From NCBI GenBank assembly GCA_030167865.1, contig JALAGF010006020.1:1-46262 (forward strand): a DNA stretch of 46,262 nt, written 5' to 3'. The notes beneath the pieces are model-generated. The model saw only the letters and a program-made list of their open reading frames with translations. It was not told the origin of the DNA and made no database searches. How positions within the stretch are numbered: the first letter of the stretch is position 1; each line of letters starts with the position of its first letter. Source of the stretch: Craspedostauros australis (Eukaryota). The position numbers were made by a program, and so were the translations under genes. Shown piece after piece: positions 14,695 to 40,040 of this stretch.

Positions 14695-17053
14695 TGCTGG
14701 ATTTGTGATGGTATTGCTGGATGTGCTCTGCAATGCGCTTTGCGATGTGCTCTGCAATACGCCTGATCTGTGTATTGTGGTCTCGCTGCGGACTGCCTCT
14801 GGTGCTCCGGGTTGCCGTTGTGGCGACTTTGGCGACTGCGATAGTTGTGAGGAGTGCTCGAGCAACGAGTGAAGCGGTTGTGATGGTTGTGATGATTGGG
14901 ATGATTGATTCAATGGAGATGATCGCGATGTCATGATGGTGGCTTTGCTGGACCTTCGATCGACCCACTTGTTCTTGTGCTGGCAAGTGATGGTTGGGGT
15001 GCACTGGGATTGATGCAGCTGGTGGCCAGAGTCGTCGTCACTGTCGTCGCTCGTACCTGCACGAGCACTCGTGTTCTTGCGCTTACTCGGATTTGGACCC
15101 CTGATTGTAGTATGTGGTTGCATTGGGGCTTGCGCGTCCGGCTTTAACGGCGCCTGTGGCTTCACAACCACGAGTATCGGTGTCTGTGTGGACATGATGC
15201 TCGATTGGCAAGGGCGACCTCGGGAGATGGCGTTGACACTGATCGTGAGGCCCAGAGGGAGAGAGAGACGCAAGGGAGGTGGTGATGATCTCCTTCGTCT
15301 CGGCGAGACTCGGAAAGAGCTGACCAGCCAGCGGTTCGTCTTCAATCGGTTCAAATTAGAGGTGGGAGCCTCTCAGCCACACGCAGGAGGCGGTTCCAGA
15401 GGTAGTGCTGCTGCTGCTGGTAGTGCTGGTTGTGCTGGTTGTGCTTGTCTTGGCGCGGTATTCAAAGCTTCTCGCAGCCAACGGCGCGAAGTCCGTGCTC
15501 GGGTGGAACACGAACAAGCAGCGCCCCGCGAGCAAAAGTACCTGTGCTCTTCCTTCTTGGTCCTGCTGGTTTTGCTCGTGTCGTGGTGGTTTCTTGTCAC
15601 GGGAGCCGTTGCTGCTCCCTTCGGTGCGGCGTTTGTACCAATCGTTCGTCGTTGGTCGCTGACGAAATTGTCCCTGGGACGTAACGGCAAAATGTGTATC
15701 GCGGTCATTTCTCGTTGTCTTCCGTGTGTGTTGCTCTGTTTGAATTTACGAGGCGGTGCACAATGAGCACGACATCTTCCATGTGCCATGCGTCACGAAT
15801 GAACAGTGTGTCACGTCGGACAAGAAAAACACATAAATTTAGTCATGTCTACGCGCCAGCCAGACCAATGATAGTCAACACACCAACTCCACCGCTCCGA
15901 AGAAACATCTTCGGGCTACTTTGTTGTGCAGTCCACACGAACTCACGAACTCAGAAAGCCGCAAGGGCAAGCACGCACCACACCACTTCCTCCTTCAACA
16001 CCTCTGCCCCATCCACAACCATCACGATGATGAATGGCCCTGCCGAAGTTCCACGAGCACCGCGCACCGCTTCGTATTCGAGCACCACTCAACAAGGGAC
16101 CACCGTGTGTTCATCTATCGTCGGTATTGCCTCGGAGAGTGTCATGGATCGTAGTATATAATAGAATACCATACTCTACTGATATATCCTTGTAGAATAC
16201 ATCCCATCATGTTCCAAGAGCCGTAACATGTTGCATTCGCCAAGCCTATCATGGGAACATGTTTCTGAATCAGAGTACGACTCAAGAACGATGCCCTGCA
16301 AGTCTCCAGCACCTCCAACTTCATGTGTTGGGCTGGGCCATCTCTTGCACACCAAACCACCAGCTATGAGAGCTGCTATATTCCAAACGAGAATAGAGCG
16401 GACACCACGTCATTTGCTGCCGCCGGCGGGTGGTCGTCGGTTCTGGGTTCGGCCCATGGCCGATGTAAGAACCAAATCAAGCGAAACAGGAACAAAGGCG
16501 ATGTGGGATTGTCAATTCCACATGACCTCGGGAAGCTTCCGTGTCACACAGGAGCATGATGGAGTCGCGGAGTATAAATGATGGGTCTGCCGATCAATTG
16601 CTTCAGTTCCTTGGCTCCAGCGTTCCAATGCTGCTGCGTACTGGCAAGGCTGTCCATCATGCCTCGTGCTTGTTTACACACAACTACCCCAACCATGCTA
16701 CTCAGAGACCGTCCTCTTGCTTCACAAATGGGTACTCAGTGGTGTAGCGTCACCTACTTGTCCATCGACGCGTAGTCGACTCGTGTTTGTGCGATTGTCA
16801 GAATCGGCACACAGGGCTGACACTTGTTGTTGAAATTACAGGACACAATATAGAGTGTCCGTTTTGTACTATCAATGTTGTTGTGTTGATTCACGACCGT
16901 TTCATGTTGACGTTATAGTTGATCGAGACGTTAACTCAATTTGAGTTTGCAATAAATATATCTCATGTTACGTCCGTACGGCCATCATGTGAAACCCATA
17001 CAATCCGATGAGTCGTCCGTGGCCTCGACAGAGAACCGTGATGAGACAAGAGG

Positions 17054-21753: not shown

Positions 21754-22968
21754 GCGTGGCCGTAATCCACAACCCCCCACGGTGCGTGGCATGCCGCTGC
21801 ACTGTGTTGCATAGCGATACAAGTATTACATAATATTATACATGGCATGCAACGGGATGACGACAGCAGGCAAGTATTATACATCACATTACATTCTATT
21901 ATATAGAATAGTATAAGAAGAGAGGTCGTATCCCACACTCCACTGTCATACTGTGACCGTCCCGTAGCTGTGATTTGCGTCTGTGGCACGCATGTGACGA
22001 ACTGTAGCAAGCCGTGCCTAGCATCAGATACGCGTCTCATGGCATACCAACCAGCACCAAAGCATTCGGCAACATCAGATAACGACCGCTCGATTCGTAT
22101 CTTTCCGATCTCGTCGCGATGTGGGTGCACATCTGACAAGCGAGAATGCGGTGTGCACAAGTTTTGGCGCCAACCCGATTCTGTTCTTCTCATGACAGGC
22201 AAGGTTGTGGTGATGTGTCAGGTCGGCTGATTCGAAGGTGGTATCTTTGCGAGAATGACCCTGTTGTGCCTCGATGGGACATGGTGCGTGGGTTCGGGTA
22301 TCTTTGGTGGACCGACATGTGACATGACTGCGACGATGACAAGGGAGGAAAAGGTCTCAAACCAAGACCGGAATGTGTTCTGTTTCGTCCTTTGTGGTAC
22401 ACAATGGCTGGTTTGCGTTGGTGGCGACTGTCGATGAGACACATCGGTATTGTGTTTAGTATGGTGACTCGTGACACAGAAGCAAGATCAATGGAGTTGG
22501 AGAGAGGTGACAAAAGAAGCCCATCGCAGGGGGTATTGATGGCCTGGACGAGCGCTCTGTGGTAACAGGTGGCTGCGAGATGCGGGAGACGTGCGATGAT
22601 GGCAGAGAGCAGTCGTACGCACCAGTAGTAGTACCAGCCATGAGTACGAGTACAAACCACACTTCGCTGGTATGTCTGATGTGTGGGCATGCAAACATGC
22701 GAACATGAGAGGAAGGAGCCTCTTCTCTGTGTCTCAGAACTTGGCAACAACCACTCACCAATGATGTTGATTGCGCACAAATCTTGGAAATCAGAACAGC
22801 CGCACCAAACTATCCATCCAACTCGCATCGATTGCACCTAGTGTGGGTAGGTTGTCCGAATACGAATACGGATACGAATAGGAAGAGGTAACGAAGTGGA
22901 GACAGACAGTCCAGACAAGAGAGCGAGGAAGACGAGAGAGAGAGAGAGAGAGCTAGTGATTGACGAAG

Positions 22969-25900
22969 ATGAGCACCCCAGTCACCCCGAAGAGCAGCAA
23001 GCAGAGCATCGGCAGAGGCTCGTTCAAGTCACCGAGGACGCCGAAGACACCGAAGACACCAAAGACACCACGCAACGCAGGTGGCTTCCGGGCTCCCAAG
23101 ACGCCCAAGACTCCGAAGACCCCAAAGACGCCAGGGGGTTCCCATTTCAAGGTCCCCGATCACTGGGAAAAGCAGTCGGCCTTGGTCTTCCACAAGCGCG
23201 ATGACAACGTGAACAATCCAGACATCTCGGGCACCAAGGACTGCAAGCGCAAAGGCGTGTGGACCGGCGAGTACAACGTCAAGTCCCCGTCGGAGCTCTG
23301 GGTATTCCCGTACGGTCAGGAACCCATCGAGATCCACCACTCCAAGTACGAGGCCTTCGGCGTATGGGGCTACAAGCCTGGCGTCACGGAACAGGACTGC
23401 ACGACTCCCAAGCACTTCTGGTTCTACCCGCCCAAGGCCAGGGTGCCGTCCTTCTTCCAGGCCCTGGGAATATGGACCTTCCCCTACGTCAAGCCGGAGA
23501 CGGCGCACATCGCACCGGACTCGGCGGGCTTCGTGGACGTCGGTCTCGAGTCGGTTAAGAGGAAGAAGCTCGACGTGGGCGGCCAATGGAAGCTGCTCTA
23601 CCAGAAGGACGGCCTTCCGGTCGTCACGAAGAAGAAGCTAAACCTCAAGATCCGGACGTGGAAGAATGAGATCATCCCGCTCGACGACTGCCGCACGACC
23701 GACAGCATCGACGCCATCAAGAAGCGCGTTCAGGATTTGCGTCCGGATCTGCCCAAGACCACCCAGAACATGTTCCACGACGGCGAGTTCCTTGAGAGCG
23801 CCGCCACCGTGCATGACTACGGCATCCCCAACAACGGCATCATCGACCTGGAGGGTATGCAGGTTTACGTGCAGCTGCCTGACAATGGCAAGCGCCTGCT
23901 GCTGGCCGTCGACGGGCCTGCGACCACCATCCAGCGCGTCAAGGAGATGGTCGAGAAGCAGGAGAAGATCCCACCATCGCAGCAGAAGCTCTCCTTCGGC
24001 GGTCAGTCTCTCGAGCAGTCACCCAAAACCAGGACGCTCAAGGATTACAAGATCAAGCATCTGTCGACGTTGGATCTGGACCTCGACGACCCAAAAATGA
24101 CGCTCTACGCCCAGGAGTATGGCACCGAGCACCAGCTGCCAATCGCTGGCGTCAAGCCCGCGCAGACGGTCGATGAGACCAAGGCGCAGATCGAGCAGCA
24201 GCACGGCATCCCCAAGCGCGACCAGCGTCTCGTGTACAAGGGCAAACCTCTCAAGGACAAGGACAAGACGCTCAAAGACTACAAAATCCCCAACGGCGCG
24301 GTGCTCGATCTGCTGCCGATGAAGGTCACCGTCGTCACGCCCGATGGCAAGAAGAAGATCGACCTGGTCGGCGTCAAGCCAAACTCCACCATCCAGCAAA
24401 TCAAGCAGATGGTCAATGACAAGGTCGCCTCCATCCCAGTCGATGAGCAGCGTCTCGAGTACCAGGGCAAGCCCCTCGACAAGGACAGGAAGACGTTGGA
24501 CGACTACGACATTCCCAACGGTGCCACCCTCGACTTGTCTCCGATGCAGCTCTTCGTCAAGAACGAACAAACGGGCAAGACCTTCCCCGTGCACGATCCG
24601 TCGCTCTCCCCCCGCACGACGGTGCAGGAGCTGAAGAACATCATCCAGGATCAGGAGAACATCCCGCCGAAGGAACAAAAGCTGATCGCGCCGAACGGAA
24701 AGGAGATGAAGGACGACAAGAAACCGCTGTCAAAGTACGGGGTTGCCAACGGCGACACCCTCAACTTGTCCAACGCAGGCATGGAAATCACCGTCGTCGA
24801 CTGGATGAGGAACAGATACGAACTCAAAGATCTGCAACCGACAACGACCATCGACGAAGTTAAAGAGATGGTGGAAACCATGAAGCCCACGTCGAAGGGC
24901 ACCAAGCCTCACAAGCCGGTCCCCAAGCAGCACCAGCGATTGTTGTACCAAGGCAAGGAGCTGTCCGATAACAGCAAGTCGCTTGAGGCATACAAAATTC
25001 CAAACAAGGCGCAGCTGAATTTGGAGGGCATGGAAGTCGTGGTCCGTGATGCCGACAGCAACACGAAGACGCCCATCTCCAACCTCCACCCAAGCGATAC
25101 CGTGGACGACATCAAGTCGCAGGTCGAGAAGAAGCTGGGCACGCCGAAGGACCAGCAGCGCCTCATCCACAGGGGCAAGGAGCTCAAGGACAATTCATCG
25201 ACGTTGCAAGACAACCGGATCAAGCACGGTGATAAGTTGGATCTGGAGGGAATGAAGATCCACGTGCGGACGCCAACAGGAAAGAAGCTGACATTGAATG
25301 TCAAGCCAACCGATACTGTCGATGACGTCAAGGGGCAAATCGAAGGCCAGACCAAGACGCCGAAGAAAGAGCAGCGCCTGCTGTTCAAGAAGAAGGAGCT
25401 GGACGATGGCCGGCCGACGTTGGATGAATGCAACATCAAGCACGGAGACACGTTGAACTTGGAGGGCACGCAGATCCATGTCAAGACTCCAAGCGGCGAG
25501 ACCTTGACGCTTGACGTCAGACCGAGCGATACGATCGACAGTGTGAAGGAGCAAATCAAGGATCAAACCAAGACCCCGAAGAAGGAGCAGAGGCTGCTAT
25601 TCAAGGGCAAGGAATTGAGCAACGGTCGACCAACCTTGAACGACAGCAACATCAAGCACGGGGATACGCTGGACTTGGAGGGCATGCAGATCCACGTCAA
25701 GACTCCAAGCGGTAAGAACTTGACGTTGGATGTTAAGCCAACTGATACGATCGATAGCGTGAAGGATCAGGTGGAGGGCAGAACCAAGACTCCGAAGGAT
25801 GAGCAGCGTCTCATCTACAAAAAGAAGGAACTCAACGACGACGCAGCAACGCTGGAGGACAACAAGATTCCCCATGGTGCCACGCTCAATTTGGAGGGCA

Positions 25901-27060
25901 TGCAGATCCACGTCACTCCGGCCAGCGGCAAGGGCAAGCCCATGACGCTGGACGTCAAGCCCTCCAACACTGTCGACGATGTCAAGAACAAGCTCGAGAA
26001 AGAGCACGGCATCCCGAAGGACGACCAGCGTCTCAACTTCAAGGGCAAGTCCTTGGACGATGATAGTCCCACAACAAAGACGTTGGATGACCACGGCATC
26101 GAGCATGGTTCGACGTTGGACCTGCAGGGAATGCAGATCGTCGTGAAGGACTGGAAGAGCAACAAGCTGACGCTGGATGTCTCCCCGACCGACACCATCG
26201 CTGACATCAAGCAACAGGTGTCAAAGAAGAAGAAAATCCCGACCGACGTCCAGTTCCTCTCGTACGATCGCAAGAGCCTCAGCGACGACGACAAGACGTT
26301 GTCCGACTACAAGATCAAGCACATGTCGGTGCTTGATTTGGAACGCATGAAGATCTACGTCAAGACGTGGAACGGGAAGACATTCCCGCTGGATGTGGAA
26401 CCGAAGAACGCGATCTCCGAGATCAAGGGCAAGATCGAGGCCAAGGAGAAGATCTCGCCAGACAATCAGTACCTCATCCATGGAGGCAAGCTGCTGGAGG
26501 ACGAGCCGACCTTGAAGGATTACAACATCCGGCACAAGGCGACGGTGAACCTGGAGCGAATGAAGGTCTACGTCAGAACCTGGAACGGCAAGACGTTCAC
26601 CCTCGAGGTGAATCCGGACGACACGATATCCGACATCAAGGGCATGGTGGCCACGAAGGAGAGCATTCACCCCAAGGAGCAGCTGCTGCGGTTCAACGAC
26701 GAGGTGCTGAAGGACGAACCGACGTTGCGGGACTACGGTATCAAGTACAAATCCACTATCAACCTCGATCAGATGCCGAAGGAGGAGCCGGCGAAATCGC
26801 CAAAGGCCAGCAAGGCGCCAGTCGAAGCCGTCGAGGCCGAGGAGGAAGACTTTGAGGAAGTGCCGACCTTCCGCGTCCGCATGGACGATTGGCAGGATCC
26901 ATTCGCCTTCAGCCCGAAGACCAAGGCCAAGAAGGATGGAGTGCGCGCGAGGAAGCATTACAGCGGTTTGTACGACTTCTACGGAACCGCAACGAACACG
27001 CAGACCGCTCCATTCAAGCCGGTCCTGCAGGACGATGATTCTGGCGGCGATGCGAAGTAG
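22969..27060 (+). CDS. 1363-aa protein with 14 tandem divergent ubiquitin-like domains, N-terminal (TPK)n and Trp-rich repeats
   Basis: First ATG at 22969. Fourteen units of the form MQIxVKTxxGKxxTLxVxPxDTIxxxK...IPxxxQRLxxxGKxL...TLxDYxI...TLxL between ~23638 and 26772. None ends in LRGG. Confidence 0.95.
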   Translation: MSTPVTPKSSKQSIGRGSFKSPRTPKTPKTPKTPRNAGGFRAPKTPKTPKTPKTPGGSHFKVPDHWEKQSALVFHKRDDNVNNPDISGTKDCKRKGVWTGEYNVKSPSELWVFPYGQEPIEIHHSKYEAFGVWGYKPGVTEQDCTTPKHFWFYPPKARVPSFFQALGIWTFPYVKPETAHIAPDSAGFVDVGLESVKRKKLDVGGQWKLLYQKDGLPVVTKKKLNLKIRTWKNEIIPLDDCRTTDSIDAIKKRVQDLRPDLPKTTQNMFHDGEFLESAATVHDYGIPNNGIIDLEGMQVYVQLPDNGKRLLLAVDGPATTIQRVKEMVEKQEKIPPSQQKLSFGGQSLEQSPKTRTLKDYKIKHLSTLDLDLDDPKMTLYAQEYGTEHQLPIAGVKPAQTVDETKAQIEQQHGIPKRDQRLVYKGKPLKDKDKTLKDYKIPNGAVLDLLPMKVTVVTPDGKKKIDLVGVKPNSTIQQIKQMVNDKVASIPVDEQRLEYQGKPLDKDRKTLDDYDIPNGATLDLSPMQLFVKNEQTGKTFPVHDPSLSPRTTVQELKNIIQDQENIPPKEQKLIAPNGKEMKDDKKPLSKYGVANGDTLNLSNAGMEITVVDWMRNRYELKDLQPTTTIDEVKEMVETMKPTSKGTKPHKPVPKQHQRLLYQGKELSDNSKSLEAYKIPNKAQLNLEGMEVVVRDADSNTKTPISNLHPSDTVDDIKSQVEKKLGTPKDQQRLIHRGKELKDNSSTLQDNRIKHGDKLDLEGMKIHVRTPTGKKLTLNVKPTDTVDDVKGQIEGQTKTPKKEQRLLFKKKELDDGRPTLDECNIKHGDTLNLEGTQIHVKTPSGETLTLDVRPSDTIDSVKEQIKDQTKTPKKEQRLLFKGKELSNGRPTLNDSNIKHGDTLDLEGMQIHVKTPSGKNLTLDVKPTDTIDSVKDQVEGRTKTPKDEQRLIYKKKELNDDAATLEDNKIPHGATLNLEGMQIHVTPASGKGKPMTLDVKPSNTVDDVKNKLEKEHGIPKDDQRLNFKGKSLDDDSPTTKTLDDHGIEHGSTLDLQGMQIVVKDWKSNKLTLDVSPTDTIADIKQQVSKKKKIPTDVQFLSYDRKSLSDDDKTLSDYKIKHMSVLDLERMKIYVKTWNGKTFPLDVEPKNAISEIKGKIEAKEKISPDNQYLIHGGKLLEDEPTLKDYNIRHKATVNLERMKVYVRTWNGKTFTLEVNPDDTISDIKGMVATKESIHPKEQLLRFNDEVLKDEPTLRDYGIKYKSTINLDQMPKEEPAKSPKASKAPVEAVEAEEEDFEEVPTFRVRMDDWQDPFAFSPKTKAKKDGVRARKHYSGLYDFYGTATNTQTAPFKPVLQDDDSGGDAK

Positions 27061-27459: not shown

Positions 27460-29046
27460 TCACAGCAGCATGGCGCTGTCAACCTTGATTTGATCCGGCA
27501 GCTTCAGGCTATTTCTCCCAAAGATCCGGCGCAGCAACCTCCCCGTCGGACTCGTGGTGAGGGCATCCTCCGTCAGCCTCTGGTGATGCTCCTCCACATC
27601 CGGCACCGACTTGCGGATGCGCCGCTCAATCTCGTGAAAGTTGGGACGCAGGTCGGGATCTTCCTGCCAGCAGTCCTCCAGGAGTGTGCGGATGCAGAAG
27701 GGAAGATCGGGATGGCACCTGGGACGCACACGCAGCTTGGCGACGGCCTCGACCAATGTGGACTGGGTCTTGTGCTTGCCGTACGGCTTCTCACCGTGGC
27801 AGATCTCCCACAGCACGAGAGCGAAGGTGTAGACGTCGGACGCGTACGACACGCCTTCCGTGCCCGTCAAGACCTCTGGCGCCATGTACCGCATCGTGCC
27901 GCATACGTTGGGGGCGGTCTGATCAATGTCCTGCTGCGACGCCGCGTTGTCCTCATCGTCTTCCACGCCGCTCGATCGGTTGGGGATGACGATGTTACGC
28001 TTCTCTCGCACGCGGCGCACCATGCCAAAATCAAAGAGCTTGACGGTGTTCGTGTGCTTCTCGTAGCCGATGTTGGAAGGCTTGAGATCGCCAAAGATGA
28101 ACTGCTTGGAGTGCAGGTAGTCCATGGCCCGGGCGATGCCGAGCGCATCCTGCAGGTAGATCTCCAAGTTGAGCGGATTCCTGGGATTGTAGCTGCGATG
28201 GACGGCGCGGCTTCCCGGCGATGCCCTGTGCTTGAGGGCCGCCAACCGTGATGAAAGATCCAGCTTCTTCTTGTGAAGCTTCGGCGAGACGGGCAGGTCC
28301 TCATGATTCTGCTGCTTGAGCTTGGCCTCCAGAGTTTGCTTCTGCAGAATCTCCATGACGAGGAACAGCGTGCCGTGTCCGTAATACTTGACGATATTGG
28401 GATGCCTGAGCTTGGAGAGGATGGCGCCCTCCATGGCAAGATCGACGACCGCGACGGTGGCGTGAGTGGGGCACTTGGCTGTTTTCTGGCTGTTGACGCA
28501 CTTGACTGCGTACTCCTGATCGCGTTGCTGTTGTTGTTGCTGTTGTTGTTGCTGTTGTTGTTGCTGGGTGGAAGAGCTGCAGGACTTGGTGCGATCGTGG
28601 GCCGAGACTGCGCTGATGGTGCTGGCACAGATGCTGCCTGGCGAGGAGAGGCTCGCGCAGGTGGTGGAGCTGGCTGTGGTCACCGTATCGCCATCGCAGG
28701 GGCAGGCGTTCATCTCGTGGGTCAGGAAACCGCTGCTGCTGCTGCTACTGCTGGTGTGGTTGCTGCTGGCGTCTAAGCCATCACCAAAGACGTCCGGATT
28801 GGAGATCCTGGCTCTGTAAACATGCCCGTAAGCACCGCTTCCTAGCAGCTCGAGGATGTCGAGATCATTGAGGTCGATGCGCAGCTTTGGCGACAGCCTG
28901 CGCATGGAAGGCTGGCGGCTGCCCACATCCTCCGTCAGACTGACGAAGGATCCGTAGTAGCGCTTGTGGAAGGAACCGACCTCCTCGCGTGCTTTCTCCT
29001 GAGCTGATGCACAGAATCGGTTGTTGCTGGGGTCCTCGAGCTTCAT
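27460..29046 (-). CDS. Protein kinase, TKL-like, non-RD, 528 aa (paralog A)
   Basis: LGSGAYGHVY, YAVK, alphaC Glu (DLAMEG), FGDLKPSN, DFG, GTMRYMAPE, SDVYTF, CW..DPDLRPNF. First ATG is 29046 (the ORF-track start at 29091 is TTG). Confidence 0.93.
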   Translation of the reverse strand: MKLEDPSNNRFCASAQEKAREEVGSFHKRYYGSFVSLTEDVGSRQPSMRRLSPKLRIDLNDLDILELLGSGAYGHVYRARISNPDVFGDGLDASSNHTSSSSSSSGFLTHEMNACPCDGDTVTTASSTTCASLSSPGSICASTISAVSAHDRTKSCSSSTQQQQQQQQQQQQQQRDQEYAVKCVNSQKTAKCPTHATVAVVDLAMEGAILSKLRHPNIVKYYGHGTLFLVMEILQKQTLEAKLKQQNHEDLPVSPKLHKKKLDLSSRLAALKHRASPGSRAVHRSYNPRNPLNLEIYLQDALGIARAMDYLHSKQFIFGDLKPSNIGYEKHTNTVKLFDFGMVRRVREKRNIVIPNRSSGVEDDEDNAASQQDIDQTAPNVCGTMRYMAPEVLTGTEGVSYASDVYTFALVLWEICHGEKPYGKHKTQSTLVEAVAKLRVRPRCHPDLPFCIRTLLEDCWQEDPDLRPNFHEIERRIRKSVPDVEEHHQRLTEDALTTSPTGRLLRRIFGRNSLKLPDQIKVDSAMLL

Positions 29047-30729
29047 CGTTGGTTGGTTGTTCCAATTGGTTGTTCCAATTGATTGTTGCAATTGATTGGT
29101 GCGTGTTCTGTGATTATGAGCACAAAGTGACCCAAGTCAGCTCTCTTCGATTGCGCTTCGATTGCGCTTGAATTCCACTGTAACTGCGTCTGAGATGGAG
29201 ACGCTCGTGCTGATAGCGTTCGTTGATGGTTTGATGGTGTTGGAAGAGGGGAACGGTGGTGCCATGTGGAAGAAGATAAGCCTCCAACACAACCCGTTTT
29301 ATCGCTCTATCACTCTATCACTCTATCACTGTGTCGCTCTGTCGCTCTGTCGATACAGATGCACATCCAGATGCTCCTGCGATTGTTGCAGATAGTTGTA
29401 TGCATGCCCTCAATCGCGTGATGCTGTTCTTGCACAGTTGGCGATCCTTCCTGTTGATGGGGATGAGTCGAGCAGGTGCGAGCACCAACAGAGTGGTTGT
29501 GGACGTGTGCTGTTCGACCTGGATCATCAACAGTGGATGGTCGCATTGGGTTCCAATTTGGTCGTCTGCTTGTTGTGTTGGTTGTGTTTGTTGTTGGCTG
29601 GGAATTGGTGATCTGTTTTCGCACTTTGTTCCGGCGTTTTTGGTTCGTGATGCGCGCAAAGAACGTGAGACGAAGCGAATGGAAAAGGGTTCGAAAATAT
29701 TGAACCTTCTGTCACAAGCTCGTAATCTTTGTCGATTGTGACATGCGCCTTATGTGTCAAATATATCATTTATCTGAAACGTCTTCAGAGAATCGACTTT
29801 ACGAGCAATCGTCGCGTCGCCAATGCCACAAGTTGGTCGTGCCTTGGGGCATTATTTGACCTATCGCCTCATTTTGTCCCCGTGAATTTGTATTCGTGCC
29901 TGTCTTCGTGTTCGCGCCACAAGTTCTGGAGTCACGTTGTCGAGGACCAACTCGACAAAGCTGGGAGCAAATGGACCGTGCAATGTGTCATCGCGTTCTG
30001 TGGTGGCACTACTCCGTCCAGACACGTAACATTCAGAGGCACAACAACGCAAGAGATGGCTTCAAAAATGTCCAAACACGTTTCTTGTTGTTGCACGTGA
30101 CTCATTCGTGAATCAGACAACTCCATATCATTCAACAGTATTCAGTCCTGAATACAATAAAAGATCATCAGAACCGAATGCGGGACTTCCAGAAGACATC
30201 AAAATCGGTCCATCAGACGTGTATGCTGCACACGCCACAACATCACGCAGTTCGGAGAAACAACCCGTTGTCAAAGTTTTGTCCGTTTCGGAGGTTCTCT
30301 GCTTCGCTCGAATGCTGGACAAGTTCGTCTATTGTATTTATTGGTTGACATGGATATCGTTCGTCATGTGTGCGTCGGTTGGTCGATTCAGTCGTTTTGG
30401 AACAGGCTACGCTGTACTCGTAGAGGGTCTATCGATACATATCTGTAGAGAGGATACGAATGCAACAAGGTGTGGGGTCACTCCGGACTGGCGCATCGAA
30501 CTATGATACTCTTTTGGCGTCAAGACTCGTGCGAGTATGATACAAGTGATAGCCATGGGTGTTGCGCCCTTCGCACGCACGTAGCAATGCATCATAATCC
30601 GCATTAGTGTGTTATTATATGTCTCAACAACAAAGAGATTCAGATATTCTTATTAGAACCGTTTTGTTCTAATGTATGTATGGTACTCGTAAAACTCTTA
30701 CGAGGAAGAAATGGCTGCTGCGGGCCACC

Positions 30730-32175
30730 TCACGACAGCATGACGCTGTCCACCTTGATCTGATCCGACGAGTCGCGGCCAAAGATGCGGCGCAGCAGCT
30801 TCCCCGGCGACGGCTTCGGACTCGATTTTTCCCAGTCATGACATTCCTCCACCGACTTGCGAATGCGGCGTTCGATCTCGACGAAGTTGGGACGCAGATC
30901 CGGATCGTGCTGCCAGCAATCCTGAAGCAGCGTGCGGATGCAGAACGGCAGATCGGAGTGGCACTTGGGGCGCACCTGGTCCTTCTCGACGGCCTGGCGC
31001 AACATCGCCGGCGTCCGGTACTGCCCGAAAGGCTTCTCGCCGTGGCAGATCTCCCACAGAACGAGCGCGAAAGTGTAGACATCGGAGGCGTACGACACGC
31101 CCTGGCTTCCTGTCATCACCTCGGGCGCCATGTACCGCATCGTGCCGCAGATGTTGAGAGATTCGGTCTTCTCGAGGTGCTGCGGCGTGGATTGCGTGTT
31201 GGTCTGCTTCGCTGGAGCGACCTTATCGGGCACAACGACGTTGCGCTTTTGTTGGACCCTGCGCGCCATGCCGAAATCAAAGAGCTTGACGGCACCCGTG
31301 TGCTGGTCGTATCCGATATTGGAGGGCTTGAGATCGCCAAAGACGAATTGCTTGGAATGCAGATAGTCCATGGCCTGGGCGATGCCGAGCGCATCCTGTT
31401 TGTAGAGTTGGAGATTGAGGGGCTTCCTGTGATTCTGATTTCTACCAAGGAGGCCGCCGCCGCCGATGCCGATCGTCTTTGATTTGTTCTTGGTTTTGCT
31501 CTTGTTGTTGGCCTTTGGTTTGATGGAGGATATCAACGACGCACCGGGACGGTCGTCTCTGTTTGCATTCCCGCTGTGTGAGTATGGGAGCTGCGATTGG
31601 TCCTGCTGCTTGATCCTATCCTCCAGGGTTTGCTTTTGCAGGATTTCCATGATGAGGAACAGCGTGCCATGCCCGTAGTACTTGACGATGTTGGGGTGCC
31701 TGAGCTTGGAGAGGATGGCGCCTTCCATGGCGAGATCGACAGTGGCGACGGTTGCATGGTCCGGTGATTTTGCCGTCTGCTGCGAGTTGATGCACTTGAC
31801 GGCGTACTCTTTGTGTGAGTCTTTGCTGTTATTAGCGTTTGTATTGTCGCCGTTGCCATCAACGATTCGAGCACTGAGGACGTCCGGGTTCGATATCCTG
31901 GCCCTGTAGACACTGCCGTACGCACCGCTGCCCAAACGCTCGATGGCATCAAGGTCGTTGAGATCGATGCGCATCTTGGAGGAGAGACGGCAGACCGACG
32001 GCTGACGGCTGCCTAGATCTCTGGTCGTTGTGACGAAGGAACCGTAGTAGCGCCTATTGAATGTGCCCACCTCCTTGCGCGCCTGCGTCTGAGCCGATGC
32101 ACAGAAGCGGTTGTATGCTGTGGGATCCTCCAGCTTGGCCCCTCTCGATCTGGTTTGCGCATATTGGTTGGTCAT
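30730..32175 (-). CDS. Protein kinase, TKL-like, non-RD, 481 aa (paralog B)
   Basis: Same motifs as paralog A (LGSGAYGSVY, YAVK, FGDLKPSN, DFG, APE) and shared N- and C-terminal extensions. Confidence 0.94.
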   Translation of the reverse strand: MTNQYAQTRSRGAKLEDPTAYNRFCASAQTQARKEVGTFNRRYYGSFVTTTRDLGSRQPSVCRLSSKMRIDLNDLDAIERLGSGAYGSVYRARISNPDVLSARIVDGNGDNTNANNSKDSHKEYAVKCINSQQTAKSPDHATVATVDLAMEGAILSKLRHPNIVKYYGHGTLFLIMEILQKQTLEDRIKQQDQSQLPYSHSGNANRDDRPGASLISSIKPKANNKSKTKNKSKTIGIGGGGLLGRNQNHRKPLNLQLYKQDALGIAQAMDYLHSKQFVFGDLKPSNIGYDQHTGAVKLFDFGMARRVQQKRNVVVPDKVAPAKQTNTQSTPQHLEKTESLNICGTMRYMAPEVMTGSQGVSYASDVYTFALVLWEICHGEKPFGQYRTPAMLRQAVEKDQVRPKCHSDLPFCIRTLLQDCWQHDPDLRPNFVEIERRIRKSVEECHDWEKSSPKPSPGKLLRRIFGRDSSDQIKVDSVMLS

Positions 32176-33867
32176 GGTCTGTTTGTTTTGCTTTGTTCTG
32201 CTTGTACTGTTTGTTCTGTTTGGTTTCTGATGAAAGGATGCTGATGGGAGGGGAAGACGGTGATGGGAGGACGCAGTTTATGACCCTCTCATTTCATGCA
32301 CGTTGTGATGGGCAACGAGAATGAAAGAGAGAGAGAGATGGGTGGCAATGGGTGGACGGATGATTTGATGTGATTTGATGTGATGTGATGTGAACAAGGG
32401 GATCATCCACGGAACTTTGTGATCATCTGCACCACCCCGTGCTGTTCATGATTGTGATGTTGCTCCTTCTGGAAGTTTGTTCTCATGTTGCTCTTGTTGA
32501 TGGTGTCCAATGTTTCCGCGAAGATCGTGCCGTTCTGCGTGCGTGAACCGTACTGGTATTAGTGCACACGACGCGAGCATGGCATGGCGAAGACACACTG
32601 GTAAAAATGTGGGAGGGAATGTCGTGTGGGCACTTGTTGTCTCACATTTCTTGTCGTATAGGACATGTTTGTGACAGCAGCTGATAAGTATGGACATGGC
32701 TTAAGTCTTGTGCGAGAGAGCTTTTGGTTTGATTCGTGCGACAGTTTGGTCTTGGCACCATGAACTTCGCCGCTTTTTGTATTTCGCCAAACGGGTCGTG
32801 GACATCCGGGACAGAGGTACTGCTACAACGTTATGTGGGAGTGCTTGGATTCTCTTTGGTTCACGGATCATTATCTGGGAACCGTGACGTGACGCAAGTC
32901 GTTCGTGCCTGATCGGGACAGAAAAGATGCCTGAAAAGACCGAACGAACAGAGATGTGGACAAAGGGAGACACATCAAGCGACAGACCATGACATGTTTG
33001 TCTTGTGTCCCTTGTGTCTTTGTGTTGCGCCGCGGTCGTGTTGGTGTTCGGTGATGGGGAGAAGGAGGGTGGCGGCATTTGCGAAGACGCCTCACACACC
33101 CACCCACCCACACTCTCTGCATCGCAGCTCACCTCTCATTCGCACTCGCACTTGCATTCGAACAAAGTTGGGCAGCTCGTGACTCGTGGCGTGTAGGAGT
33201 ATCACCTGGCGAAGAAAGGAGAGCATCATCTGCATCCTCCATCCAGACCAGTACTCGCATCGGAGTGTCCACGAAGGCATCCAAGGGGATCCAACGAACC
33301 AGCGGAAGAAGCAAGTGCACTGGAGCGAGGACAGAAGGTGGAGCTGATAGTGGAGCTGGAGCTGATAGTGAAGTCAAGGGAGAGACGCCTCGCAACACAA
33401 CAAGGAGAAAACGAACGACGAACAACAGACGAACTGAGCAAGGAGTATCGAAGCAGGAGAAAGAGAAAGCGCTTTCCATCCTTCTACTATCTGCGCTCCT
33501 TCCGCAGATCGTACTCGTGCGAGTTGGATCGGCCTTGTGACGCCAACGAACCACAGAACCACAGAACCAACCGAAGCATAGATCGTTCTATTGGGACTAG
33601 TCGTACGACTACGCTTACCACAAAGCATCAAAGCGTCAAAGCACCAGCAGATTCCTCTCAGATTGAGAGAGAGAGAGAGAGACTGTGAGACATCACCATA
33701 CGAGCTATTATACGAGGAGAGTAACTGTACGTGCGCACCCATACCTTTGACAGGCAAACGTAGTCAGACGCAACCATCTCCATACGTATTATACCATACA
33801 AGCGTGCCACACAAGCGTGCCACACAAACTAATACGCACCCGGCCTTCATCAAAACAACGTCACAAG

Positions 33868-36800
33868 ATGGCAACGGGCGGAGACGAGGATGCTGCCGTG
33901 GCAAAGTACAAGGCCATGCGCCGATCATCGGACGCGTACGACAACATGAACAGCGCATCCATGGGCTTCCTGGGTGCTTCCAACACCAGGCAGCAGAAGG
34001 AGAAGCAAAACAAGAAGGCTGCCAACAAGTGGAGGCCCAGCAAGGGCAGGGAGGAACGTCCCAGTGATTGGCTGGGATCTCCTTCCGCGAAGAAGAGGCC
34101 TAGCTACAGGATCAAGGCGGTCATCGCTGCTCCAACTCTCGATGATAGCAACAGTGACAGCGACAGTAACAACGACAATGGCAACGGCAACGACAATGGC
34201 GATGACAATGGCGATGACAATGGCAATGATGCTGACAGTAATAGCAGTGATGGCAACCCAACCAAAGATAGGAAGGCCAACAGCAACAGCGGCAGCAATA
34301 TCGGCAGCAACAATAACAGGAACAACGGCAGCAACGGCAGCTCAACTTCGCGATATGGCTCCGCTCGTCAATCAAAACCCAAGTCCACTGCCAAGCCCAA
34401 TTCGTTGTCGGCATCGCCCAGGCCCACACGATGGCTGGGAGGTAGTGGCGGTGGAGAGACCATGACGCCAGGTCGCAAGTCATATCGCATCAAGAACGCC
34501 TCGAAGAACAGGCCCACAATCCCCAACTTGGATGACACGTCTGCGCCAGCAACGACAACAGCAACAACCAACCTGCCGTCTGCATCGTCATCATCCAACA
34601 ACAGCAGAAGAAGGGCATCATGGCAACCGCAACCGCAACAACCACCAGCAACAACCACCACATTGGATGCCCTGCTCTCTCCCGCCATGATGCCACACTC
34701 ACAGCGAAAGCTAACACCCTCCAACCATTCCAGGGCGAGTTTATCGACAGCTGGCAGCGTCTCCAACAGGGCCAGACGCACACCGCCATTGCCACCACCG
34801 CCACCGGTTCATGCGCCCGCCCGAACATCCATCACCACACCTGTGGCACCGCCCAAACGAGTCATCGGTCAGAGGAGGCAGAGCGAGAGCAACATCAGCA
34901 ACTCCAGCAATCACAGCGCGCTCGGTTCCTCATGGTCGTCCTCGATCATGGCATCGCCCATTCACAACCATGCGAAGCGGGCATCCATCGCAACCTCCTC
35001 ACCCACCACCTCGCAATCTCCAAGGCGGACCCACAGTCTGCAAATTGAAGCCAAGCGCAAGGAGGCCATCCGCTCCAAGCTTCTGCAGCAGCCAGACGCC
35101 AAGGTCACCCTCTCGTCGACCGTCAAGAAAAAGGAAAAGATGAACAGAACCAAATTCGTCGCTGCGTACGCTGCCTTCGAAGACAAGCCGAATCCCTTGT
35201 CCTCCAGCAGCCACCATCGCCATCATTCCGTGCCAATCCAGAGCTCGCTGCCATCGGCATTCGCCCACCTTGCTCCCATCACCAACCTCAAATCCTCCAT
35301 GCCGACAGGCAGCGCGCATTCGGACAGGACGCCGCCTCCACCTCAAATCCCATCGCCGCGCATGCCACCACGTCAACGACCGTCGCCCTCCGACCACGAC
35401 GCGCCCGTGACGCCTGTTCCCAGACCAAAGAACACGGTGGGCAGGAACGCGAAACAGCAGTCCTACCTCAAGGGCGCCCCATCCCCGCACCGCATCATCT
35501 CCCCACGACCGGGTGCGCCGAGATCCTTCTACATACCGGCCAACTTCCAGGAGCTCCGCAAGAGGCTGCGGCAGCGTAAATCAAACGAAGCAGAGCTGTC
35601 GCAACTCACAGACATCATCGACAACCTCCGCAAGGTCCCCGACCTCGCGGCCATGATGTCCCTGTCGCATCATTCCCTGTCCTCCATCACCGAACCATCC
35701 AAATCGCGCGAGCAGGCATCCGAGATCCTAGAGATCATCCGCAAGCTGCGGCACGTCGAGCTCAACCCACCCAAGAAACGTCGCTCTTCTTCTGTCAAGC
35801 GCGTCACCAGGACCATCAGCGACTCCACCTTGGACACTGACGACGATGACGATGATGACATCTCCATGACGGTCCTCAAATCGCTCGAGTCTGGTACCGT
35901 CGACAGATCGTCTCGCAGTTCCAACAGAAACAACGACAACAACAACAACACCTCCGACGACAGCGCCGACAACGATGGTGGCGAGGCCCTGCTTTCCGAC
36001 GGAACATCCGGAAATCTCCAAACGCACGTCAAGGAACTGGCTGGTATCGTCGGCAATCTGCGCAAGGTCGGGGCGCTCGAATCCATGACGGACACAGAGC
36101 TGGGGCAGATGCAGAATATCGTCGATCAGCTCGATTCCGTTCAACAGCGGCTGGACGACCGTCTCTACGAGGCCAAGCAGCTCTCCAAGGTCTCCACCAA
36201 GCTACACAGCATCAAAACCTCCAAGTCACCCGCCATCGATGAGATCATCGCCGAGGCGCTGCGCAAGCTCAAGCGCATTCGCCCCAAGCTCTGCGATCAG
36301 GATGAGGACGACACCATGAAGTGCATCAAGATGCTGCGGAAGCTCCAGGCGGCCATGAACAAGCGCGAAGAGGAAGAATTGGCAATGCTCATTGGACAGC
36401 TTCCAGCCTACACGGCAGGTGGAGGTGACGACGATGATGACGACGATGACAATGACAATGAGGTTGATGAATTCCATGGCGACAGCCATGACGACAATGG
36501 GCCTTCCTCAAATGATGCAGCCGGCACGGGAGGTTCCAAGCTGCGCAGATCGGATGTTCGTGAATTGGCACATGTCCTGGCCGAACTCAAGATGATGGGA
36601 CAGGCACCACCCAACACTTTCTATCACGGTCGCGTGGACAGCAACCTCAGCAACGACAACAGCGCTGCTGGTGGAAACGAGGGTGGCCGTGTGGGCGGAA
36701 GCACGTTGAACACGAAGCATTCTGACTTTTTGACCAACGCCATCCGCCGTCTCAAGCGCATTCAGATGACCAAGCGGCAGGCGAAGGAGACTGCCAACGT

Positions 36801-39507
36801 CGTGCGCAAGATGGGCATCGCGGACGATGACGATGACAACAGCAGCACGGCAACCGATGAGGACATACACCAGCTGCGCGATGTCATCCTCAACCCGCGC
36901 GATGCCAAGGAGGTCATGCACATCCTGCGCGGGTTGCGTCGCAGCATCCAAATGAACCAGAAGGAGGCCAATGATCTCGCCGACATCATCGACACGCTGG
37001 TCGGCAAGGCGACCCAGAACTACCAGGATGACATCGCCGACGCCATCGGTCGGTTGAAAAAGGCAAAGCTGTTGCCACGCGAGGCCAGTGAGGTTGCGAA
37101 GATCTTTGTGGACCTGCGCAACCTGAGGAAGCCAGGCAGCAGCAAGCGCGTCACTTTCAAGGACACTCCAGAATACCGCTACTTGACGGAGTACGTCGAA
37201 GATGATGACAAGATGGAAGAAATCTCGGACACATTGGAGACCCTTGCCAACGTGGATGGACTTCCCGACAATGTCCTCGGTCAGTACGGCGACATGGTGG
37301 CAGACTTGGGGCACGACCCGGATGAAGACGATGATGGCGCAGAAAGCGCTGCATCTGGGCGACATGGCAGAGGGCAACGTCCCCAAACCATCGCCGATGC
37401 CATCGCGTCGCTTCGCAAAGCCAGCATCAACGCCAAGCAGACCAAGGAGGTTGCCAAGATCATGGTCAACCTACGCAAAACGAAGAAGCCGCCACAGGGC
37501 AACCGGCGCTTCCAAGACACTCCGGAATATCACCATCTGCTGGACGTCGTCAAGGATGATGACACTGCCGATGATATCGCGGAGATTCTGGAGGCCTTGG
37601 ATGACGACGACACGGCGGATATGGAGGAGTGCGCGGCAGAACTGTTGAAGGTCCAAACGGTGCCGGAGGCCATCGATCGCATCCAGTCCAACGATCTGAC
37701 ACCAAAGCAGATTAAGGGAGTCGCTGGGCTCGTTTCCAGCTTGCGCGCCACTGATGACGACGCTGGCGGCGATGACGACGATGACGACGATGACGATGGC
37801 AACAACATCGTCAATGGCAATGGCAACGGCAATATCAATGGTAGAACGCCATCAGGCAAGCGCGTGCGATTCCGCGACACTCCCGACTACCACTACATGT
37901 ACGAAGCGCTGGCAGACGGCGACGACGAGGTTGCGGATGATCTCAATCAAGTGATGGAATCGTTGCAAGATGAGGACCGTTTCGACGATGACGATCTGCA
38001 GCAGTGCGCCCGCGGATTGCTGGATGGCATTCCTGCCATCATTACCATCCCGAGCGCAGTCGGACGCATGTTGCAGAACGACATGAACCCAAGGCAGAAA
38101 CGCGACGTGGCTGGCATCATCGCCAACCTACCCCCCATCAAGAAAGGCAAGAAAAAGAAAAAGAAACGCGTGCGATTCAGCGACACCATCGAATGCCGCT
38201 ACATCCAGGAGGAGCTATTTGCAGACGATCCGGCCGCCGCTGATGACTTGGGTGACATCATCGGCGAGATTCAGAGCCGCTTCGGCAGAGACGATCTGCG
38301 CGAGTGCGCCAATTCCTTGTTGGGCATTCCTGAGATCATCACCATCCCTCAGGCGGTGAGCAGCATCCAAAGGGCGGATCTGACTCCAGAAGAAACACGC
38401 AAGGTCGCAAACATCATTGTCGGACTTCGTGACGACGACGACGAGAATGACGGTGGCAAATCCAGTGGTACGAGCACCGATATGCATGATGACGACAGCA
38501 AGTCCAAATCCAAGAAGAAGAAGAAGTCAAAGTCAAAGAAGCGAGTGCGATTCCGTGACACGCCCGAATACCGATATCTGTACGAAGCCTTCGACGATGG
38601 CAACAACAAGACTAGCAATGGGAATGGAAAGAAACCATCGCACACGGAAGAACAGCAGGAAGAACGCATTGAAGGTATTGCGGATATTCTGGAGGGCCTC
38701 AAGAGCAACGACAAGTTCAAGGGCGACGACATGAAGGAATGCGCCGACATCCTGACGGGGTTGCTGGGCGCAAAGTCGTTTGAAGATGACAGCGACGAGA
38801 GCGACGCGCCGCTGGTGGAGGTTGAATACGAGAAGGGCAAGCCGAGGATGGTGCTGAATGTGCCAAAAGGAGCGAAGGCAAAGTCCATCGACACCCTGTC
38901 GGTCGACGACAGCGTGGAAATATCCGACGTCGAGGATTACGAAGTCGCCAGCAGCGACGATGACGACGATGACTACGTCGCGGAGTTGGTGGACACCCCG
39001 AAGGATCGTACTTTCGATGGTGGTGACAGCATCGACACGAGCGTGGAGTCGCCGCTTCCGGAGTCACCGAAGAAGAAGTCGCATCGCAAGTACCACTACC
39101 GCCGATTCGGCAGCCACGACGACACCAACAACGACGGCTCATCATCCAACGATGACGATGGCGAGGATGAGGACTCCGATGAGGAGGAGACAGAGGAGCG
39201 CCGCATCGTGTTCGTCCAACGTCACCATTGGAAGCACAAGAAGCACAACAAGACGGTGCTGGGAGACCGGCGGTATTGGAAGGCGAACGCGTTCGGCGCG
39301 GACGAGGTGATCTACAGCCCCCTGACGATGGAGCAGGTGGGACGCCGCAAGAAGGTGAACCAGGCCTTGCTGAGGTCCATGGCGAGCCTGGACGATGACG
39401 ATGAGGATCAGCGGATTGACGAGATGGAAGAGAAGGCGTCGGAGAAGATGGATATATTGGATCGCAGCAACCACAGCTCGTCGAAGGTCCGGTATCGACG
39501 CGCATGA
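33868..39507 (+). CDS. 1879-aa scaffold-like protein: disordered Pro/Ser-rich N-half, WH2-like helices, five helical repeats with RVxF-type motifs, acidic tail
   Basis: Intronless 5.6-kb ORF, first ATG at 33868 (MATGG). Internal repeat with core KRVRFxDTPEYRYL; helix+LRKV/LRHV/LRKT motifs. Confidence 0.92.
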   Translation: MATGGDEDAAVAKYKAMRRSSDAYDNMNSASMGFLGASNTRQQKEKQNKKAANKWRPSKGREERPSDWLGSPSAKKRPSYRIKAVIAAPTLDDSNSDSDSNNDNGNGNDNGDDNGDDNGNDADSNSSDGNPTKDRKANSNSGSNIGSNNNRNNGSNGSSTSRYGSARQSKPKSTAKPNSLSASPRPTRWLGGSGGGETMTPGRKSYRIKNASKNRPTIPNLDDTSAPATTTATTNLPSASSSSNNSRRRASWQPQPQQPPATTTTLDALLSPAMMPHSQRKLTPSNHSRASLSTAGSVSNRARRTPPLPPPPPVHAPARTSITTPVAPPKRVIGQRRQSESNISNSSNHSALGSSWSSSIMASPIHNHAKRASIATSSPTTSQSPRRTHSLQIEAKRKEAIRSKLLQQPDAKVTLSSTVKKKEKMNRTKFVAAYAAFEDKPNPLSSSSHHRHHSVPIQSSLPSAFAHLAPITNLKSSMPTGSAHSDRTPPPPQIPSPRMPPRQRPSPSDHDAPVTPVPRPKNTVGRNAKQQSYLKGAPSPHRIISPRPGAPRSFYIPANFQELRKRLRQRKSNEAELSQLTDIIDNLRKVPDLAAMMSLSHHSLSSITEPSKSREQASEILEIIRKLRHVELNPPKKRRSSSVKRVTRTISDSTLDTDDDDDDDISMTVLKSLESGTVDRSSRSSNRNNDNNNNTSDDSADNDGGEALLSDGTSGNLQTHVKELAGIVGNLRKVGALESMTDTELGQMQNIVDQLDSVQQRLDDRLYEAKQLSKVSTKLHSIKTSKSPAIDEIIAEALRKLKRIRPKLCDQDEDDTMKCIKMLRKLQAAMNKREEEELAMLIGQLPAYTAGGGDDDDDDDDNDNEVDEFHGDSHDDNGPSSNDAAGTGGSKLRRSDVRELAHVLAELKMMGQAPPNTFYHGRVDSNLSNDNSAAGGNEGGRVGGSTLNTKHSDFLTNAIRRLKRIQMTKRQAKETANVVRKMGIADDDDDNSSTATDEDIHQLRDVILNPRDAKEVMHILRGLRRSIQMNQKEANDLADIIDTLVGKATQNYQDDIADAIGRLKKAKLLPREASEVAKIFVDLRNLRKPGSSKRVTFKDTPEYRYLTEYVEDDDKMEEISDTLETLANVDGLPDNVLGQYGDMVADLGHDPDEDDDGAESAASGRHGRGQRPQTIADAIASLRKASINAKQTKEVAKIMVNLRKTKKPPQGNRRFQDTPEYHHLLDVVKDDDTADDIAEILEALDDDDTADMEECAAELLKVQTVPEAIDRIQSNDLTPKQIKGVAGLVSSLRATDDDAGGDDDDDDDDDGNNIVNGNGNGNINGRTPSGKRVRFRDTPDYHYMYEALADGDDEVADDLNQVMESLQDEDRFDDDDLQQCARGLLDGIPAIITIPSAVGRMLQNDMNPRQKRDVAGIIANLPPIKKGKKKKKKRVRFSDTIECRYIQEELFADDPAAADDLGDIIGEIQSRFGRDDLRECANSLLGIPEIITIPQAVSSIQRADLTPEETRKVANIIVGLRDDDDENDGGKSSGTSTDMHDDDSKSKSKKKKKSKSKKRVRFRDTPEYRYLYEAFDDGNNKTSNGNGKKPSHTEEQQEERIEGIADILEGLKSNDKFKGDDMKECADILTGLLGAKSFEDDSDESDAPLVEVEYEKGKPRMVLNVPKGAKAKSIDTLSVDDSVEISDVEDYEVASSDDDDDDYVAELVDTPKDRTFDGGDSIDTSVESPLPESPKKKSHRKYHYRRFGSHDDTNNDGSSSNDDDGEDEDSDEEETEERRIVFVQRHHWKHKKHNKTVLGDRRYWKANAFGADEVIYSPLTMEQVGRRKKVNQALLRSMASLDDDDEDQRIDEMEEKASEKMDILDRSNHSSSKVRYRRA

Positions 39508-40040
39508 GGACCAACGGCTGCACGGGAACGCCGTTACTCTACTCTCCATTGCACTCTATGTGATTTAATGTTATGGCATGGCGTGGATGTAACGTGGATG
39601 TAACGTGGATATAAAGTTGAACAGATGAACACGTGAACAGACGAATAGAGAGTTGTGACTGGTGTGTTCTGTTGGGAGAGTATCTGTATTCTTACCCAAG
39701 AAAGGCGATGAGCTGTTCGATCCTGGACTTCAGGTGCACGGTAGTGCATGGTATTGTTCGCTCTGCTAGCTGTAGAATACGGTGATTTTCCTATTGAATG
39801 CACTTGTTCTAAGCGTGCTTGCATGCAGTTCTCTATGGCATGTTGTATGGCGTGCGTGTTCACCATGATACTGCGTAGGAGAATAGAATGTATGAGTGGT
39901 CTAGTACTCCTCATGTAATTTGTCGAGCCTGTTACCATAACATTTGTTCATCTTTGTTGTAAAGTCTGGGATGCCAAGTCTGGGATGACAGAGTAATGAT
40001 CGCTTTGCCCCCGGTGATGCATCGCACGGAGGGATGCAGC

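Follow-up and report, generated by a model that had tools for sequence, protein, structure and literature searches.

A single intron-free open reading frame (ORF) at 33868..39507 (+) of a 46,262-nucleotide stretch of Craspedostauros australis DNA (contig JALAGF010006020.1 of assembly GCA_030167865.1, positions 1 to 46,262; hereafter the window) encodes a protein of 1879 amino acids (aa), followed by a stop codon, that belongs to a diatom-type family without annotation. We found that this protein contains an array of five tandem units (37021-38775, 585 aa) and that a short, strongly conserved block in four of these units includes an intact match to the RVxF motif, which is used for docking onto protein phosphatase 1 (PP1). 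An earlier note on this DNA, made from its letters, had proposed a multivalent PP1 scaffold, and we retain this proposal tentatively, in the form of a lineage-specific multivalent PP1-docking scaffold to which we give a little less than an even chance.

The frame around the gene is open from 33751 to 39507 (+) from stop to stop, with its first ATG at 33868, and all five motif strings and repeat units lie in one frame of the ORF. Since motifs at the N- and C-terminal ends of the protein align with those of nine homologues (P0001 to P0009), the start and the end of the gene model look right. One could argue that the ORF is not real or belongs to a decaying gene, and that the repeat is compositional noise, considering that it contains long low-complexity stretches and that the protein was absent from the protein collections searched (phmmer did not retrieve it from 1.84 billion representative proteins). 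A frame that stays open over 5.6 kb, homologues that align from the N-terminal motifs through the C-terminal domain and amino acids that are conserved over synonymous change all speak against this possibility, which we find scarcely credible.

The relatedness of the five units, as seen in the earlier note, was borne out by BLASTP, which detected similarity in 10/10 pairs of units (E 5.4e-20 to 1.2e-4 in a database of five sequences). The hidden Markov model (HMM) of the five units that the note had suggested was also built and, when compared to every ORF of >=60 aa in the six frames of the window, matched only the ORF of this gene (E 8e-194), all others giving E >= 0.3. Unit 1 (U1, aa 1052-1172, 37021..37383 (+)) scores 126.6 bits with this HMM; BLASTP and the unit HMM together delimit U2 (aa 1173-1262, 37384..37653 (+)), U3 (aa 1263-1391, 37654..38040 (+)), U4 (aa 1392-1490, 38041..38337 (+)) and U5 (aa 1491-1636, 38338..38775 (+)). 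From the unit alignment and the secondary structure predicted by AlphaFold 2 (AF2), each unit consists of a helix A (T-I-x-x-A-I-x-x-Φ, Φ being hydrophobic), a helix B (x-x-x-x-V-A-x-I-Φ-x-x-L-R), a linker, the motif block and two to three more helices, and ends in D-D-Φ-x-E-C-A-x-x-L-L. The linkers before the motif block are 8-37 residues long, are not conserved and consist for 86-100% of polar, charged, Gly or Pro residues (poly-D, poly-K or G/N-rich): that of U3 has 37 residues rich in D, G and N, that of U4 is a poly-Lys linker and that of U5 has 36 residues rich in D, S and K. Poly-Lys runs precede the motif in U4 and U5 only (2/5 units), in line with the two runs noticed earlier. Tandem Repeats Finder returned 28 rows for the DNA, all with a period of <=24 and thus no long-period repeat, which indicates that the unit duplications are old and that the units have diverged.

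The motif blocks were found where the earlier note had placed them, in a single frame: KRVTFKDTPEYRYL in U1 (37144..37185 (+), with KRVTF), a degenerate RRFQDTPEYHHL in U2 (37504..37539 (+), with RRFQD, where the Val codon is absent and RVxF is not matched), KRVRFRDTPDYHYM in U3 (37858..37899 (+)), KRVRFSDTIECRYI in U4 (38164..38205 (+)) and KRVRFRDTPEYRYL in U5 (38539..38580 (+)), the last three with KRVRF. Their consensus is K-R-V-x-F-x-D-T-P-E-Y-x-Y-Φ, with RVxF intact in 4/5 units, and the block is the best-conserved 14-column window among the 97 scored columns of the unit alignment (mean pairwise identity 0.67 vs 0.31 for the rest). Four residues, R, F, D and T, are invariant in the five blocks, so that the Asp two residues past the Phe is always present; basic residues stand upstream of the motif, Thr-Pro follows three residues past the Phe in 4/5 units and E/D-Y-x-x-[LM] is also seen in 4/5. 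The codons used for the same block residues vary between units (AAG/AAA, CGC/CGA, GTC/GTG, ACT/ACC/ACG, CCA/CCG/CCC), a pattern in which block identity reads as the product of peptide-level selection and not of recent copying. Recent gene conversion, considered as a source of the motif identity, is ruled out by these synonymous codon differences. In the predicted helix that follows the motif, IAEILE, LNQVME and IADILE (3/5 units) fit the PP2A-B56 docking pattern [LMFI]xx[ILV]xE; these matches are probably coincidental.

Aromatic residues of the kind that complete an RVxF motif are scarce in this protein: F and W together make up 1.7% of it, and 5 of the 11 F/W residues of the 585-aa array are the Phe of the motif. 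A strict RVxF pattern attributed to Hendrickx 2009 is found five times in the protein, four times in the array and once as RRIVF at 39199-39213, where it opens a conserved C-terminal domain; the mean expected from composition shuffles is 0.25, and 0/2000 shuffles reached five. A stricter pattern attributed to Meiselbach 2006 is found four times, against a mean of 0.05, and 0/2000 shuffles reached four. Since the repeat copies share ancestry by duplication, these matches are not independent events in the shuffle test, and the motif count above chance shows retention rather than independent origin.

PP1 owes its specificity almost entirely to the proteins that interact with it. A passage of PMC6406801 gives the docking consensus as [K/R]x(0-1)[V/I]x[F/W], with binding via the Val and Phe side chains, and states that nearly 70% of PP1 interactors carry it; passages of PMC3937515 describe PP1 targeting proteins as lacking mutual similarity beyond such motifs and phosphorylation beside RVxF as disrupting or weakening PP1 binding. 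KRVTF, the three KRVRF copies and RRIVF all fit [K/R]-x(0-1)-[V/I]-x-[F/W] with x other than Pro, and RRFQD of U2 does not. SILK and MyPhoNE, which are optional for PP1 interactors, were searched for and found in 0/10 family proteins.

We propose that in a diatom-lineage protein made of short amphipathic helices, duplication of a four- to five-helix unit produced five copies in tandem, and that the segment from helix B to helix C decayed in each copy into a linker that is polar, low in complexity and variable in length, at the C-terminal edge of which the conserved block would have survived. This block would be an RVxF-type PP1 docking site, with its Val and Phe occupying the hydrophobic groove on the catalytic subunit of PP1. 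Lys/Arg ahead of the motif and the Asp behind it would supply the usual electrostatic flanks, and the Tyr/Leu at +6 to +9 a possible ΦΦ-like extension (a hydrophobic pair downstream of RVxF). One molecule could hold up to four PP1 via the array, or five if RRIVF in the C-terminal domain is counted. Between the docking sites, the helical modules would act as spacers or as substrate-binding surfaces, and the Thr-Pro three residues past the Phe in 4/5 units may be a phospho-switch. The repeat, the matches to the motif, their conservation and their place beside low-complexity linkers are observed here; that the motif is disordered and accessible, that it binds PP1, that it does so multivalently and that Thr-Pro acts as a switch is inferred. 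What makes us favor a PP1 array is the fit to the consensus, the flanks, the location at the edge of a linker and the retention of the motif under synonymous divergence despite the decay of the helix that preceded it. Of the earlier proposal, the repeat, its lack of a described family and the four consensus-fitting motifs, which lie beside low-complexity linkers, stand; the missing RVxF at the equivalent position of the homologues and the lost Val of U2 count against it.

These and several other observations weigh against PP1 docking. An HMM of homologue units, which comprises 11 units from 6 proteins that are distant relatives only, aligns along its entire length with U1 (47.1 bits, E 6.8e-16), and KRVTF is placed within the linker that joins helix B to a helix reading 'xLRKV-x-TPE' in the homologues; 0/11 homologue units have RVxF in that linker. 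The earlier note had pointed to conservation of Val and Phe in homologues as a touchstone, and the outcome is partly unfavorable in that all nine homologues lack RVxF at the equivalent position. The Val that RVxF docking requires is not among the invariant residues of the block, and U2 has lost it and kept F-x-DTPEY-x-x-L, suggesting that the part of the block downstream of RVxF is at least as constrained as RVxF itself. Furthermore, junctions of the type [RK][RK][VIA]x[MLFW] are found throughout the family (e.g., KVKM, RAKL, RIDM, KVQW, RVRW), so that the family may have a structural reason for generating RVxF-like strings. Finally, no five-unit orthologue was found in the representative proteins, word-indexed proteins and metagenomes searched.

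Structure models bear on both sides of the argument. An AF2 model of U4 and U5 (a 249-residue segment, 7-row alignment) has a mean predicted local distance difference test score (pLDDT) of 43 and is too weak for conclusions on tertiary structure, fold searches or the burial of the Val and Phe. At this mean of 43, K-R-V-R is modeled as coil in both units (pLDDT <50), F-x-D as a single turn, and a helix begins at I/P-E, three to four residues past the Phe (segment residues 50-59 and 175-186). PEYRYLYEAF is thus predicted to be helical, and hydrophobic residues recur in each of the five units at i, i+3/4 and i+7, so that the Tyr/Leu proposed as a ΦΦ extension probably belong to an amphipathic helix or to the fold. 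The homologue P0001 was also modeled (9-row alignment): its mean pLDDT is 52.6, reaching 60-90 over residues ~380-870, which are predicted as all-helical hairpins. In KKVQW of P0001 (743-747), K743-K744 are the last residues of the helix 729-744 and V745-W747 belong to the loop leading to the helix 751-764; in KRVRW (846-850), K846-R849 close the helix 832-849 and W850 is the first residue of the loop after it. The pLDDT of these RVx[FW] regions is 65-76.

Considering these results, the block may instead be a structural element, in which F-x-D-T-P-E is the N-cap box and hydrophobic anchor of helix C, K-R-V is the remnant of an 'L[RK][RK]V' helix end, and the match to RVxF is a by-product; no phosphatase would then be recruited, and the protein would be a lineage-specific helical scaffold for some other partner. 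We take this explanation seriously, although we lean towards doubting it. It accommodates the abundance of [RK][RK][VIA]x[MLFW] helix-end junctions in the family, the 'LRKV-x-TPE' found in homologues where the gene's protein has KRVRF-x-D-TPE, the persistence of the remaining block in U2 without its Val, a set of invariant residues (R, F, D, T) that excludes V, and the amphipathic helix predicted after TPE. It also fits the location of the homologues' own RVx[FW] strings, namely KKVQW and KRVRW in P0001, KKVHW and KSVRW in P0004, KRVRF in P0005 and KVVRF in P0006 and P0007, which align with the junction between helix C and helix D and not with the linker, a junction modeled at pLDDT 65-76 in P0001. 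In the five units of the gene, this junction reads NVDGL, DDDDT, EDRF, QSRF and NDKF; NVDGL, EDRF, QSRF and NDKF are counted on the structural side, as a junction that keeps its aromatic residue without the basic-Val part. Other facts fit a structural role poorly. The homologues' preceding helix (K713-V726 in P0001) is here an unconserved polar linker of 8-37 residues, so that K-R-V has no helix to terminate and is yet kept in 4/5 units despite synonymous divergence. The structural junctions of the family accept M, L or I at their last position, whereas the RVxF-type copies have F or W only. RVxF-pattern matches are moreover about six-fold enriched in the ten family proteins, with 23 observed versus 3.7 expected. 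The expectation, which is based on how many [KRL][KR..][VI] prefixes occur and on how frequent F/W are, already accounts for the abundance of basic-Val prefixes; no probability attaches to it since the proteins are related.

In a third subfamily (P0002, P0003 and P0008), RKVVF or RTVVF is found directly at the end of helix B, so that RVxF matches occur at three or four different positions across subfamilies, a behavior typical of short linear motifs that turn over and one that we count in favor of PP1 docking. More broadly, there might be a family of PP1 scaffolds, specific to diatoms, whose docking site has shifted during evolution between the junction of helices C and D, the end of helix B and the opening of the C-terminal domain, and was captured here by the linker and amplified with the unit, one molecule holding four to five PP1, each with a Thr-Pro switch. 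We consider this extended scenario rather unlikely.

The block might also be another linear motif or a targeting signal: a nuclear localization signal made of the Lys/Arg runs and KR, an Atg8-type [DE]-Y-x-x-[LM] or YxxΦ-type motif, or a docking or phosphorylation site for proline-directed kinases at Thr-Pro. KKGKKKKKKR and SKSKSKKKKKSKSKKR do precede two of the motifs, and E/D-Y-x-x-[LM] and T-P are each present in 4/5 units. However, the basic runs are limited to 2/5 units, YxxΦ signals work in membrane-protein tails and this protein has no evident membrane span, Tyr is followed by R or H, neither of which is known to be favored in Atg8-interaction motifs, and the invariant R..F is left unexplained by a localization signal, an Atg8/YxxΦ motif or a kinase site alike. 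We judge such readings clearly improbable. Binding of actin through WH2 was considered and rejected as well. The WH2 consensus consists of an amphipathic helix, a linker of ~5 residues and LKK[VT]; L[RK][RK]V here follows after ~2-3 residues, a shorter spacing, and no Pfam WH2 match was obtained at E <= 1 for the gene's protein or at E <= 0.1 for the nine other members.

The known relatives of this protein are nine hypothetical proteins (P0001-P0009), of which two are listed by NCBI under Nitzschia inconspicua and one comes from an MMETSP transcript, the others being unnamed or hypothetical. An exhaustive phmmer search with aa 1050-1640 against the 1.84 billion representative proteins gave two proteins at E <= 0.001, P0001 (6.7e-9) and P0002 (2.4e-5), and a second search with P0001 as query gave seven at E <= 0.01, P0001 included. 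A word-indexed protein search with residues 1040-1640 scored 0/7998 candidates, a search in which low-complexity words may have swamped the choice of candidates; repeated with the C-terminal domain (1770-1850) as query, it had 16 candidates, none at E <= 0.01. Two metagenome scans produced 80 and 598 pattern matches, none of which was upheld by tblastn, and the ESM Atlas yielded no usable match. On this sequence evidence, the family seems to be diatom-type and lineage-restricted, and is so far represented by 'hypothetical protein' entries only. The earlier note had assigned the repeat to no known family, and our searches agree: Pfam gave nothing above its cutoff for the gene's protein (best E 0.071) or for the nine members, and the family profile retrieved only marginal coiled-coil and designed-armadillo rows among PDB sequences (E >= 0.003). 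Foldseek found no match to the P0001 model at E <= 1e-3 (best 1.7e-2, TM-score <= 0.13, with ARM/HEAT solenoids on top), and VIA-align against 48,161 chains aligned only residues 397-525, with generic four-helix bundles at Z <= 12.7, values within the chance range for helical models according to the tool's own note.

Features shared across the family are N-terminal motifs, many helices closing in L[RK][RK]V, an A/B hairpin of the form LADAIxRLKKxKMTPxEAxxVAxIΦxNLRKT, and a C-terminal domain of the form RKIVF-TRKHHWKHKQH ... DEVIYSPLS ... RRKAV, which has no Pfam or PDB match. In the gene's protein, this domain (39193..39417 (+)) reads RRIVF-VQRHHWKHKKH ... DEVIYSPL ... RRKKV, and the invariant columns of the family alignment cluster there, no other domain of the family being better conserved. 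It opens with a [RK][RK]I[VR]F string in 7/10 family proteins, and the P0001 model shows it as short strands and a helix at low pLDDT. The flanks of its RVxF-pattern string are reversed, acidic before and basic after. Separately, basic amphipathic A/B hairpins (aa 766-808 of P0001, aa 950-978 of the gene's protein) match the model of the SK-channel calmodulin-binding domain below threshold. A calmodulin-binding reading was rejected: the model hit 3/9 members with a best E of 0.006, and P0001 reached 14.7 bits, the cutoff being 25 bits.

Upstream of the array, the protein begins with an N-terminal region of ~540 aa (33868..35487 (+)), rich in S, P, T and N and with a few family motifs (YKxM, FLG, WLG), which is presumably disordered; its counterpart in the AF2 model of P0001 has a pLDDT of ~30. 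A central helical region follows (35590..37020 (+)), in which 'helix-L[RK][RK]V' junctions and A/B-type hairpins without RVxF are numerous, and which gives two weak partial matches to the unit HMM (aa 606-675 and aa 956-1041). The first of these, a weak sixth unit (35683-35892, i-E 0.002), includes KRVTRTISD (35797..35823 (+)), which has an Arg in the position of the Phe and may be a relic of the motif, that is, a decayed copy of the KRVTFKDT block. Antisense frames of 270-320 codons are open opposite the gene, e.g., at 36508-37470 (-) and 38717-39538 (-), and most likely result from the biased codon composition of the gene.

The window consists of nuclear DNA of a eukaryote. Among the neighbors of the gene are one for polyubiquitin, two for protein kinases, others for subtilases and one for a CIA30 protein; the sole run of N (518-567) is far from the gene. 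The polyubiquitin frame (22960-27060 (+), 1366 codons) has 13 stretches that match the ubiquitin domain of Pfam (E 9.5e-200), those listed falling at ~aa 470-1270. The kinase ORFs lie next to each other on the same strand at 27460-29136 (-) and 30730-32277 (-), with Pkinase E values of 1e-35 and 3e-38, respectively. Two adjacent subtilase fragments, one of them with a PT repeat, are at 11235-15372 (-).

If PP1 docking is correct, this protein would be a case of natural multivalent phosphatase recruitment, an RVxF-based PP1 interactor in which four docking sites were copied along with the repeat unit that holds them, and in which a docking motif was born from the decayed end of a structural helix; it would also offer a first way into the function of a family that is restricted to diatoms and labeled 'hypothetical protein'. 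In open-access PubMed Central and bioRxiv, we found no paper that links RVxF to diatoms or that uses the phrase 'multiple RVxF motifs'. Should the family with a shifting site and a paired switch be real, it would amount to a switchable phosphatase concentrator in tandem-array form, for which there is no described counterpart. If PP1 docking is wrong, we are left with an ordinary lineage-specific helical-repeat protein and, if the motif is structural, with a warning that helix ends rich in [RK][RK]V can mimic RVxF.

Comparisons with known systems were made at the levels of fold and motif. As in ARM/HEAT-like solenoids and four-helix bundles, residues ~380-870 of P0001 are predicted to form all-helical hairpins, and the weak top rows of Foldseek include CTNNBL1, AP-2 and karyopherins; designed armadillo proteins also appear, weakly, in the PDB profile search (E 0.009-0.4). 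Unlike ARM/HEAT proteins, the family has no ARM/HEAT match in Pfam, and the best Foldseek E value is the 1.7e-2 given above. With regard to the motif itself, a 26-aa query had 0 matches among PDB chains and a 5-row profile of the block only L-fuconate dehydratase and phenol hydroxylase (E > 1), so that neither type of search returned a PP1 regulator.

Budding-yeast Rif1, a HEAT-repeat protein, is described in a passage of PMC3937515 as having two described and two further potential PP1 motifs, beside which phosphorylatable residues lower PP1 binding. The gene's protein resembles Rif1 in combining a helical-repeat scaffold with more than one PP1-type motif, and its Thr-Pro can be compared to the phosphorylatable flank of Rif1. 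It differs in that we found no relationship of sequence or fold between them, in that SILK is found in 0/10 family proteins and in that the motifs of Rif1 are not copies of one repeat unit. In Repo-Man and Ki-67 (RVxF-ΦΦ-KiR), hydrophobic residues also stand a few positions past RVxF, and an [ST]-P-E just before ΦΦ resembles the T-P-E-Y seen here; in contrast to theirs, the residues downstream of the gene's motif are predicted to be helical and not extended. Compared with RVxF-type PP1 interactors at large, the motif is unusual here in being a block of a repeated unit, in abutting a predicted helix and in lacking conservation at that position in the known homologues. What the protein has in common with these interactors is four matches to the consensus, with basic residues before and an Asp after, low-complexity linkers adjoining them, and no similarity to other interactors beyond the motif.

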